IMG/VR virus record: IMGVR_UViG_2545824708_000027
Coordinates: 1-10,975 of that record
Length of the DNA stretch: 10,975 nucleotides
Origin: a virus
Lineage: Duplodnaviria > Heunggongvirae > Uroviricota > Caudoviricetes
Strand: one strand, 5' to 3'
In this document: one piece after another, positions 533-1,644 of the stretch
Numbering within the stretch: the stretch's first letter is position 1
Layout: the number at the start of each line of letters is the position of its first letter
Notes under the pieces: model-generated
What the model was told of the DNA's origin: nothing
The model's database searches: none
The model's input: the letters and a program-made list of their open reading frames with translations, nothing else
Position numbers and translations under genes: made by a program

Positions 533-907
533 TTAATGATTAATTGATATTTTGTTGTTTGATTCAACTTTCCCATCGGATGTGTGATGCTTTAAATCAC
601 AGGAATTAATACTGCTTGCTGTAAAATGATTTTCAAGGGGAGCTATTCGAATCCCTTTCTTTTTCATTAACAAGCCAAATCCTTTATTAATGATGTCCAT
701 TAATTCCAGAAAGTATTTTTCATGTAAATCCTGGTTATCAGAGAGCTGCTTCTCTTCGTACAGCCCGATAAAGGCTCGGCGTACGTTACCAGATATATTG
801 TCGATGGTTTCTTTTTCTACGGTACTCTGGTCAAGAGTCGCCAGTTGAGAGCGAACCACATTCGCTGCCATTTCCTGGAATGGCATTGGTAAATCTTTAA
901 ATTCCAT
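533..907 (-). CDS. Hypothetical phage protein (124 aa), last gene of the leftward small-gene operon
   Basis: ORF track; ATG at 907-905 with GAGG about 8 nt upstream on the minus strand; tightly spaced after the upstream gene. C-terminal ~35 aa is low-complexity (S/N/H-rich), so the true 3' end is uncertain. No motif recognised. Confidence 0.5.
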   Translation of the reverse strand: MEFKDLPMPFQEMAANVVRSQLATLDQSTVEKETIDNISGNVRRAFIGLYEEKQLSDNQDLHEKYFLELMDIINKGFGLLMKKKGIRIAPLENHFTASSINSCDLKHHTSDGKVESNNKISINH

Positions 908-929
908 TATTAGCCTCGTTGGTTAGCTA

Positions 930-1148
930 TTAACGCGGGTATGTAATCATTCTGGCAATGCTTAATGCCGCTGCTTTTTCCAGCCTGGTGATATCCTGCT
1001 CCAGAGCGGACAGATTTTCAGCCTGCTTAGCCCTGGCTTCATTGGCCCATTTCAGGTCCTGCGCAGCCTTAATTTTCTGGTGCATCCACTCATAAAGTTC
1101 ATCATCGGTATAGTCTGGCGCGATGATGACGGGTTCTCGTTTCTGCAT
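930..1148 (-). CDS. Small hypothetical protein (72 aa), predicted coiled-coil; possibly YdfC-like
   Basis: ORF track; GAGGA 7 nt upstream of ATG 1148-1146 (minus). Charged, helix-prone sequence (AKQAENLSALEQDITRLEKAA). Size and position resemble small proteins downstream of the repressor in Qin/Rac-type prophages (memory, unverified). Confidence 0.5.
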   Translation of the reverse strand: MQKREPVIIAPDYTDDELYEWMHQKIKAAQDLKWANEARAKQAENLSALEQDITRLEKAAALSIARMITYPR

Positions 1149-1177
1149 ACTGATTCCTCGCGGTGCTGTTTCGCTTA

Positions 1178-1306
1178 TCAGCCGTTAGATTTTGCCGAAC
1201 TGGAAAGCGCCTGTTTAAACTCACTGAAGCTGAGGGCTTCTTCGCCTTCGGCAAGGCCTTCGAAGTATTCTTCGTAAGCCTTTTCCATGATTGTGTTGAA
1301 ATCCAT
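1178..1306 (-). CDS. Small acidic protein (42 aa), manually found, below the ORF-track length cutoff
   Basis: Minus-strand ATG 1306-1304 with AGGTGAG SD 4 nt upstream; translation MDFNTIMEKAYEEYFEGLAEGEEALSFSEFKQALSSSAKSNG; stop TGA 1180-1178. Start lies 1 nt after the upstream gene's stop (TGA-T-ATG). Fills the gap between two tracked ORFs in the same orientation. Confidence 0.45.
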   Translation of the reverse strand: MDFNTIMEKAYEEYFEGLAEGEEALSFSEFKQALSSSAKSNG

Positions 1307-1307
1307 A

Positions 1308-1463
1308 TCACTCACCTGAGTTTCTTTCCAGCCAGCGACGGGCACCATTTTCGGTTTTAAACGTTTTGCTTCTGGTATACGTCATCGCGGTGAACGTACC
1401 GTCCTGGTTGGGGAACACGCCACATACCAGAGATTCGCTGTTGCCAAGATCGATAGTATCCAT
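1308..1463 (-). CDS. Small phage protein (51 aa from ATG 1463; alternative 78-aa form from ATG 1544), possibly YdfA/YdaF (DUF1391)-like
   Basis: ORF track 1308..1544. Internal ATG 1463-1461 has GAGG 5 nt upstream; ATG 1544 has GAGG about 10 nt upstream. First gene of the leftward operon. The 51-aa size matches small proteins adjacent to repressors in Rac/Qin (memory). Confidence 0.5.
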   Translation of the reverse strand: MDTIDLGNSESLVCGVFPNQDGTFTAMTYTRSKTFKTENGARRWLERNSGE

Positions 1464-1644
1464 GCTGACCTCATTTCCCCTTAACGCCGGGGTAGCGGAA
1501 CAAAAACCTGCTGCATAGTTATTAAAGTTGAACCCTGCCGTCATGTTCTTACGCCTCGGGCTGGCTACTTAACCCCTGACCACTGCCGGGTAACTCGAAG
1601 TATTTCCCTGCGTTCTGTGGGGCGGGGTGGGTTGGTATGTTGTT

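Follow-up and report, generated by a model that had tools for sequence, protein, structure and literature searches.

Four small genes beside a prophage repressor

The first 10,975 nucleotides (nt) of IMG/VR virus record IMGVR_UViG_2545824708_000027 (positions 1 to 10,975 of that record; Caudoviricetes), hereafter the window, hold four packed open reading frames (ORFs) on the minus strand at 533-1544, which we located from the ORF listing and by direct reading of the letters. In the direction of transcription they are ydfA (1308-1463; 51 amino acids (aa), DUF1391, or 78 aa if started from the ATG at 1544), ydfB (1178-1306; 42 aa, acidic), ydfC (930-1148; 72 aa, with a composition that suggests a mainly helical protein) and orf124 (533-907; 124 aa, phrog_6937), an extra cassette gene that Escherichia coli K-12 lacks. 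Each start codon is preceded at 5-6 nt by a Shine-Dalgarno sequence, GAGG for ydfA, AGGTGA for ydfB, GAGGA for ydfC and GAGG for orf124. A single nucleotide separates the ydfA stop codon from the ydfB ATG, an arrangement in which ydfB appears positioned for translational coupling to ydfA; an alternative ydfB ATG at 1348, within ydfA, would give a protein of 56 aa.

A sequence-only reading of this DNA had described four packed minus-strand genes, each with its own Shine-Dalgarno sequence, lying behind a repressor terminator and an operator-bearing, pL-like promoter. All of these elements were found: the ORFs and their Shine-Dalgarno sites as above and, upstream of them, a hairpin with a U-tract, a promoter-like site and a palindrome. 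The earlier observation is therefore confirmed, while the interpretation attached to it is partly supported.

Relation to the dicBF operon

Altogether, our results make it very probable that the interval 533-1544 belongs to the early-left dicBF operon of a lambdoid prophage like Qin and forms the translated, promoter-proximal section of that operon. This confidence applies to the identity of the operon and to its mechanism as set out below; our proposal for the function of the four proteins is graded separately. The dicBF operon of Qin was reportedly described by Faubladier in 1990 and is said to have been known since about that time. The operon is thus already known, its genes are catalogued but uncharacterised, and the finding is real yet ordinary.

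The alignment with Qin of E. coli K-12 carries the identification. The two sequences are nearly identical from about 35 nt before the ATG of the 51-aa ydfA through ydfC, and the products share 48/51 (94%, YdfA), 41/42 (98%, YdfB) and 69/72 (96%, YdfC) amino acids. The sequence-only reading had remarked that the gene sizes echo those of YdfA/B/C beside the Qin repressor, and this echo proves to be true orthology at 94-98% amino acid identity. A clean gap in K-12 then corresponds exactly to orf124, and the alignment resumes right after the orf124 stop codon and continues through DicF.

Beyond orf124, the minus strand carries an untranslated DicF precursor leader of about 300 nt that is conserved with K-12 (228-532), followed by the small RNA (sRNA) DicF with its own intrinsic terminator (175-227; Rfam RF00039 at 175-226, 75.8 bits against a gathering score of 48, E = 1e-15). 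This DicF differs from that of K-12 by one substitution and folds with a free energy (dG) of -18.3 kcal/mol (z = -2.9). Between DicF and the dicB ribosome-binding site lies a 19-nt inverted repeat on the minus strand, 89% complementary, whose arms (147-165 and 18-36) would form a long-range stem spanning 18-165. The repeat is probably an RNase III processing stem, and the published 3' end of the 72-nt DicF falls inside arm 147-165 (PMC5069750). The Shine-Dalgarno region of dicB (GAGGA) occupies positions 1-17 of the minus strand with the dicB ATG immediately beyond position 1; at this edge of the window the K-12 alignment runs ...GAGGACGCGATA and on into ATGAAAACG, to the dicB start codon.

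A megablast search with positions 400-1800 gave a match in 4,398 of 5,426 complete E. coli genomes and a full-length match in 172; about 80% of these genomes match at least part of the 1.4-kb segment, be it ydfABC, orf124 or the DicF leader, and often more than once. The RefSeq order in locus L001, which is 99.8% identical, is LexA-family repressor, DUF1391, ydfB, ydfC, hypothetical, dicB, DUF1482, exonuclease, excisionase and integrase; the DUF1482 gene there belongs to the YdfD family, and dicB and DUF1482 fall outside the window. The operon of four genes ending at 533 that the sequence-only reading had drawn is therefore too short, as the transcript very probably runs on to DicF and to dicB-ydfD-exonuclease-xis-int. 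In K-12, ydfA-ydfB-ydfC-dicF-dicB-ydfD is transcribed from dicBp, which is repressed by DicA, and transcripts of 1,146 nt (ydfABC-dicF) and 1,608 nt from this promoter are processed by RNase E as well as RNase III (PMC10448788).

Promoter, operator and repressor

The repressor gene upstream of ydfA (1736-2452, minus strand, with the RefSeq start) encodes a CI-like protein of 238 aa with Pfam matches to HTH_3 (4e-17) and Peptidase_S24 (1e-16), and its alignment with lambda CI covers residues 25-231 and both domains. Its intrinsic terminator (1702-1732, minus strand) consists of a 10-bp hairpin (1708-1732; dG -15.1 kcal/mol, z = -4.45) followed by UUUUUU. Between this terminator and ydfA lies a putative early-left promoter, the equivalent of dicBp or pL, at 1645-1673 on the minus strand; we infer it from a -35 element TTGACT (1668-1673), a 17-nt spacer and a -10 element TACCTT (1645-1650). 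The palindrome GGTAACAAGAGTTACC at 1647-1662, which has no strand and is a perfect match to GGTAAC-N4-GTTACC, overlaps the -10 element and part of the spacer. Related palindromes are found at the cI-cro junction at 2458-2473 (one mismatch) and 2410-2425 (two mismatches), the latter overlapping the first cI codons under the RefSeq start. The window contains eight matches to this motif against 2.95 expected, and the best three all lie in the immunity region. A putative repressor operator would thus overlap the promoter upstream of ydfA, as in the dicBF operon of the Qin type. That the ydfA promoter and the cI-cro region appear to have this operator in common agrees with the repressor-controlled, pL-type leftward operon that had been proposed for this DNA.

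Where the repressor gene starts is ambiguous: its ORF is open to a TTG at 2509, RefSeq takes the ATG at 2452, and a further ATG lies at 2409. The operator-like site 2410-2425 abuts this last ATG, which would fit a leaderless, pRM-type arrangement if 2409 were the true start.

Autoproteolysis of LexA and CI uses a Ser/Lys dyad, and a protein with Ala at the Ser position should not self-cleave. In the CI-like repressor of the window, the Ala-Gly cleavage site and the catalytic Lys are retained, but Ala replaces the catalytic Ser: the motif at about residues 157-160 is GDAM where lambda CI has GNSM (Ser149). Of 42 copies of this repressor type, 41 have GDAM; GDSM occurs in one 85%-identical relative. 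The GDAM repressor therefore probably cannot self-cleave, and derepression probably does not follow the classic SOS route, induction being likely via an antirepressor or another route. Such non-SOS derepression would fit reports from K-12, in which dicBF is not SOS-induced and the antirepressor Rem acts instead (PMC5069750; PMC10448788).

In our model of the operon, the CI-like repressor would bind GGTAAC-N4-GTTACC over the -10 element upstream of ydfA in a lysogen and thereby keep the operon off. Once repression is lifted, a single polycistronic RNA would be made, as shown for K-12, and on it each of the four small ORFs would be translated from its own ribosome-binding site. RNase E and RNase III would cut DicF from the same RNA, and read-through of the DicF terminator would allow expression of dicB and the downstream genes; both of these steps have been shown for K-12.

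On the other side of the repressor, the rightward early genes (2502-3139, plus strand) encode a P22-Cro-like protein (PF14549, 3e-16) and then a YdaT-family protein (PF06254, 3e-10) at the cII position, so that in the window a replication-side module of the Rac/Qin type is joined with a lambda-CI-type repressor.

Gene cassettes in related loci

For the analysis of architecture and selection we compiled 80 IMG/VR loci with orf124, 80 loci with DicF and further genomic loci. Among the 80 orf124-bearing viral contigs, 21 have the order ydfA-ydfB-ydfC-orf124 seen in the window and 59 have ydfA followed directly by orf124; across this set, ydfB and ydfC are either both present or both absent. The second set consisted of 80 contigs picked solely by the exact DicF core. 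Here, 31 are K-12-like with ydfABC only, about 16 combine ydfA with relatives of orf124 (the MEFKDLP proteins described below) that have unrelated C-termini of 112, 121, 133 or 212 aa, and 10 have ydfA with a 205-aa ydfB-fusion variant (phrog_35040) and no ydfC; 5 to 7 resemble the window, three have ydfA alone and three lack ydfA.

With a copy in 69 of the 72 informative DicF contigs, ydfA is the constant core gene of the operon. The ydfB+ydfC pair and the orf124-type gene, by comparison, are independent exchangeable cassettes between ydfA and the DicF leader. The neighbourhood had been called a hotspot for accessory genes; in a structural sense it is one, as the stretch from ydfA to the DicF leader is a variable slot. 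We note that in the 205-aa fusion the first ~48 residues are YdfB, read from the upstream alternative start, and that the remainder is unrelated and Cys-rich (CPICGF...); examples are loci L103, L109, L113, L118 and L121.

Start site of ydfA and its leader

YdfA matches the whole of PF07151 (DUF1391; profile positions 1-48 of 48) with 93.1 bits against a cutoff of 27.3. The AlphaFold2 (AF2) model shows a β-hairpin and a C-terminal helix at a predicted local distance difference test (pLDDT) score of 75, and a structure search with this model found no structural neighbour.

The 5' leader of ydfA (1464-1544, minus strand) begins with an in-frame ATG at 1544 that has its own GAGG and would add 27 codons. 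Of the 187 ydfA copies compared, 116 have a leader of the window type, with this ATG in frame in 110, whereas 66 of the 71 copies with other leader types lack an upstream ATG in frame. The window-type leader has two variants that diverge at 10 of the 27 aa with a ratio of nonsynonymous to synonymous polymorphism (pN/pS) of about 0.6, and some leader copies have frameshifts or an ATG-to-ATA change. K-12 and the Prokaryotic Genome Annotation Pipeline (PGAP) both annotate the 51-aa YdfA. We conclude from these comparisons that the functional YdfA is the 51-aa protein; the 78-aa protein was rejected as the general form, its N-terminal extension being specific to one leader type, weakly constrained and, in some copies, interrupted by frameshifts. 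Gene callers often take the upstream ATG, giving 'DUF1391' entries of 77-86 aa. In phage record ON470583 the 78-aa call is labelled 'head-DNA stabilization protein D', most likely through an error of annotation; nothing comparable was seen beyond a match at E = 0.42 to a head decoration protein in a search of PDB sequences.

The constancy of ydfA raises the question of whether it encodes a regulator, either an N-type antiterminator that promotes read-through of the DicF terminator or a cIII-like modulator of the choice between lysis and lysogeny. In addition to the presence of ydfA in nearly all informative DicF loci, its paralogue YdaF lies at the same place in Rac, the last ~40 nt of the leader (1464-1503) are conserved although the repressor upstream is of at least five different types (CI/S24, DicA-like, RacR-like and others), no N homologue was found in the window, and transcription has to get past the intrinsic terminator of DicF before dicB, exonuclease, xis and int can be reached. 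However, YdfA has no homology to N, cIII or any regulator, no arginine-rich motif of the kind that would mark an N-type antiterminator is visible on inspection of its sequence, and, as stated above, its model has no structural neighbour. A nut-like role of the leader was likewise rejected, because the leader hairpin does not exceed shuffled sequence in stability (z = +1.0) and the conserved element occurs once in the window, with no second copy in the rightward operon. We therefore consider it improbable that YdfA is such a regulator.

orf124 and related proteins

The orf124 protein consists of a conserved N-terminal module of ~53 aa (MEFKDLP...LYEEK), a third helix and a disordered tail; in the AF2 model, helices span residues 8-23, 32-54 and 59-84, and no structural neighbour of the model was found. 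We compared the gene with a moron, an autonomous accessory cassette that brings its own promoter and terminator; orf124 is compositionally distinct (37.6% GC against ~50% in ydfABC) and has precise indel boundaries. It is present in about 12% of complete E. coli genomes. A promoter of its own was rejected: promoter- and terminator-like sites around orf124 are no commoner than in shuffled sequences, and the sole nearby promoter-like site, found at chance frequency, overlaps the start codon and cannot serve the gene.

An exhaustive profile search with the orf124 family in 1.84 billion representatives returned 56 clusters only, with total lengths up to 208 aa. In all clusters but one (P0392), the MEFKDLP module is N-terminal, and the C-terminal modules of 50-160 aa that follow it are of at least eight unrelated kinds (loci L111, L145, L178 and L179; proteins P0367-P0395). 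No Pfam domain was found in the longer C-terminal modules tested, and we abandoned an inference of orf124 function from domain fusions. In the exception, P0392 (149 aa), a YdfC-like N-terminal part of 65 aa is fused to the MEFKDLP module; this fusion is a weak hint of a link between YdfC and orf124-type proteins, or else an artefact of stop-codon loss.

Going further, we speculate that the interval between ydfA and the DicF leader is a dedicated cassette-exchange site of Qin/Rac-like prophages and that the MEFKDLP proteins, as a polymorphic family built of two parts with the N-terminal module as a constant anchor, are modular host-targeting or counter-defence effectors that come with the earliest transcripts, YdfC possibly acting with them. 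We regard this proposal as rather unlikely; the family is tiny and entirely uncharacterised and, were the proposal true, any activity would be new.

Selection on the four genes

All four genes are under purifying selection as proteins. pN/pS is 0.20 for ydfA (81 distinct alleles), 0.34 for ydfB (26), 0.45 for ydfC (36), which is the least constrained of the four, and 0.21 for orf124 (32), and third codon positions in the ORFs are enriched for variable sites. Because pN/pS is low throughout (0.20-0.45), the proteins themselves must be under selection, which speaks against a purely RNA-level role. Along orf124, pN/pS is even, at 0.18 in the N-terminal module, 0.24 in the middle and 0.23 in the predicted disordered tail; the tail thus resembles the rest of the gene, and we rejected diversifying selection there.

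In such an RNA-level role, the four ORFs would serve as the translated 5' segment of the DicF/dicB precursor, blocking Rho termination or setting the access of RNase E, and the peptides would have no function. In agreement with this idea, DicF is processed from the same transcript and processing by RNase E destabilises the ydfA part of it (PMC10448788); ydfC, moreover, is the gene with the weakest constraint and has a stretch of 10-12 nt complementary to the DicF 5' end in every ydfC locus examined. On the other hand, purifying selection on amino acids extends to all four products, including the disordered tail of orf124, and the DicF complement is missing where ydfC is missing. Furthermore, DicF loci exist with ydfA alone or with quite different cassettes, and therefore no particular ORF is needed for DicF. 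A role confined to the RNA thus seems improbable to us.

The complement itself is 12 nt long and perfect and would pair ydfC codons 22-26 (1071-1082) with 219-230, a stretch that comprises the DicF 5' end and 4 nt upstream of it and that reaches across the RNase E site. It is kept at 10-12 nt in 45 of 45 ydfC-containing loci, in K-12 through a G-U pair, and is absent in architectures without ydfC. As it is tied to the presence of ydfC, we did not retain it as a conserved regulatory pairing; it could be due to chance, or could reflect intramolecular or autoregulatory pairing.

The four proteins are acidic to neutral and hydrophilic, none has a membrane-spanning segment, and all are predicted to be small, soluble cytoplasmic proteins. 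The physico-chemical remarks made earlier from the letters hold, YdfB (42 aa) being acidic with an isoelectric point of 4.1 and a net charge of -6.

Function searches and published work on K-12

None of the four products matched a characterised family in Pfam, NCBIfam, PADLOC, the PHROGs or PDB, in line with the sequence-only reading, which had seen no recognisable catalytic motif in any of them. The Pfam scan gave DUF1391 only, NCBIfam gave zero matches, the defence models of PADLOC-DB gave 0 families at E <= 1, and the PDB sequence search returned nothing below E = 0.4. The PHROG matches are full-length and all of unknown function: phrog_751 (4e-36) for ydfA, phrog_2061 (6e-27) for ydfB, phrog_1744 (2e-39) for ydfC and phrog_6937 (5e-77) for orf124; the phrog_751 and phrog_2061 models carry N-terminal extensions, probably from over-long gene calls. 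No similarity to N, Ral, SieB, RexAB, cIII, Kil or Gam was found in the Pfam and PHROG scans. The distribution of the four families is limited to Escherichia, Shigella and Salmonella, and every source names them 'hypothetical', 'DUF1391' or 'YdfC'; a scan of one genome per species found only Escherichia and Shigella loci, plus apparently contaminated bins of metagenome-assembled genomes (MAGs). In the literature, we found no paper giving a native function to ydfA, ydfB or ydfC, and a 2024 preprint on DicC likewise calls them uncharacterised. Matches in ASKA-based work on oxidant resistance and results from directed evolution in yeast were set aside because they have no bearing on native function.

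The position of the genes had suggested functions of the rexAB, sieB, kil or ral type, and a module for defence, superinfection exclusion or anti-restriction is the first of the alternatives on which published experiments bear. The genes adjoin the repressor in a slot that exchanges cassettes, orf124 is AT-rich and its relatives have modular C-termini, and the operon as a whole protects against lambda-vir, transient induction in K-12 cutting plating to 4% (PMC6832061). This protection, however, maps to dicB: in the same study deletion of dicB with ydfABC intact restores plating to near the control (PMC6832061), so the superinfection exclusion that had been suggested here depends on dicB. In addition, the products resemble neither Rex, SieB, Ral nor Kil and have no match among the PADLOC defence proteins, and the genes would be repressed in the lysogen, unlike rexAB and sieB. 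We consider a defence module of this kind highly improbable.

The second alternative, that the operon encodes Kil-like killing or division-inhibiting peptides or a toxin-antitoxin pair such as ydfB/ydfC, has in its favour that the proteins are small, that the downstream products DicF, DicB and YdfD are all toxic, and that ydfB and ydfC co-occur in most architectures, though the ten DicF loci with the ydfB-derived fusion lack ydfC. Induction of the whole operon in K-12 is lethal and causes filamentation, effects for which dicB and dicF are responsible: when these two are deleted and ydfABC and ydfD left in place, induced cells have wild-type growth, viability and morphology (PMC5069750). A filamentation screen lists ydfA, ydfB and ydfC only as genes of unknown function that neighbour dicB/dicF (PMC6206680). 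The toxicity or filamentation phenotype that had been anticipated for the window genes is thereby largely excluded for the K-12 orthologues. The deletion data published for K-12 largely contradict both alternatives, and the second, which is largely refuted for the K-12 alleles, seems to us extremely improbable.

Interpretation

Taken together, our analysis suggests that the four products are neither toxins nor the exclusion determinant of the operon. Tentatively, and with less than even confidence, we favour a reading in which they are early-made, non-toxic binders that modulate host or phage factors, the orf124-type proteins combining a constant N-terminal anchor with swappable C-terminal modules that confer specificity. 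A putative anti-restriction or anti-defence activity is possible and fits within this explanation.

Several observations weigh against our reading of the operon and its products. The candidate early-left promoter agrees with the consensus at 8 of 12 positions, under the 9/12 threshold of the promoter scan, and the left side has one operator copy only in the scan of the window. The Ala at the catalytic Ser position of the repressor bears on whether and how the operon would be derepressed here. On the side of function, the orf124 model is of low confidence (pLDDT 58), and ydfABC have no published phenotype, the EcoCyc 2024 update of the "y-ome" listing them as uncharacterised.

Nothing in the window alters the current understanding of the operon. 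The cassette architecture, the modular MEFKDLP family and the Ser-to-Ala repressor are new and are modest additions. The genes nevertheless merit attention, because ydfA, ydfB and ydfC are part of the uncharacterised y-ome of E. coli K-12 and share a transcript with DicF and DicB, whose effects extend to cell division, metabolism, phage resistance and virulence of enterohaemorrhagic E. coli (EHEC). The constancy of ydfA, the swappable cassettes and the selection on the proteins provide a rational sequence in which knock-outs and interaction experiments could be taken up.

Comparison with known systems

The pL genes of lambda and P22 (N, ral, sieB, cIII, kil and gam) resemble the genes studied here in position and logic: they are small early genes driven by a leftward promoter under operator control, with the repressor on one side and the recombination and integration genes on the other. 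They differ in that we found no sequence or fold similarity and no signature of the N/nut type, and in that ydfABC of K-12 are not toxic.

The early-left region of Rac (racR - ydaG - ydaF - kilS sRNA - kilR - ... recET - xis - int) is closer. It has a DUF1391 gene near the repressor, whose product YdaF is by eye ~80% identical to YdfA, and this gene is followed, as in the window type, by a small RNA, a cell-division inhibitor and genes for recombination and integration. The sRNA and the inhibitor, however, are KilS and KilR rather than DicF and DicB, YdaG precedes the DUF1391 gene and has by eye no evident similarity to YdfB, ydfC and orf124 are absent, and sieB is inserted on the opposite strand.

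The closest counterpart is the dicBF operon of Qin in K-12 (Balasubramanian 2016, PMC5069750; Ragunathan 2023, PMC10448788), with which the window shares the gene order, the ~40-nt ydfA leader, the DicF leader, DicF, the dicB ribosome-binding site and a repressor gene immediately upstream. The window differs in having orf124 between ydfC and the DicF leader and a longer 5' leader of about 175 nt. Moreover, the matching genome has intact exonuclease-xis-int genes downstream, whereas Qin is decayed. The Qin operon is controlled by DicA and DicC; in the window their place is taken by the 238-aa CI-like repressor with its helix-turn-helix (HTH) and S24 domains and by a P22-Cro-like partner. Thus, the regulatory module differs between the two systems, while the structural genes are the same.

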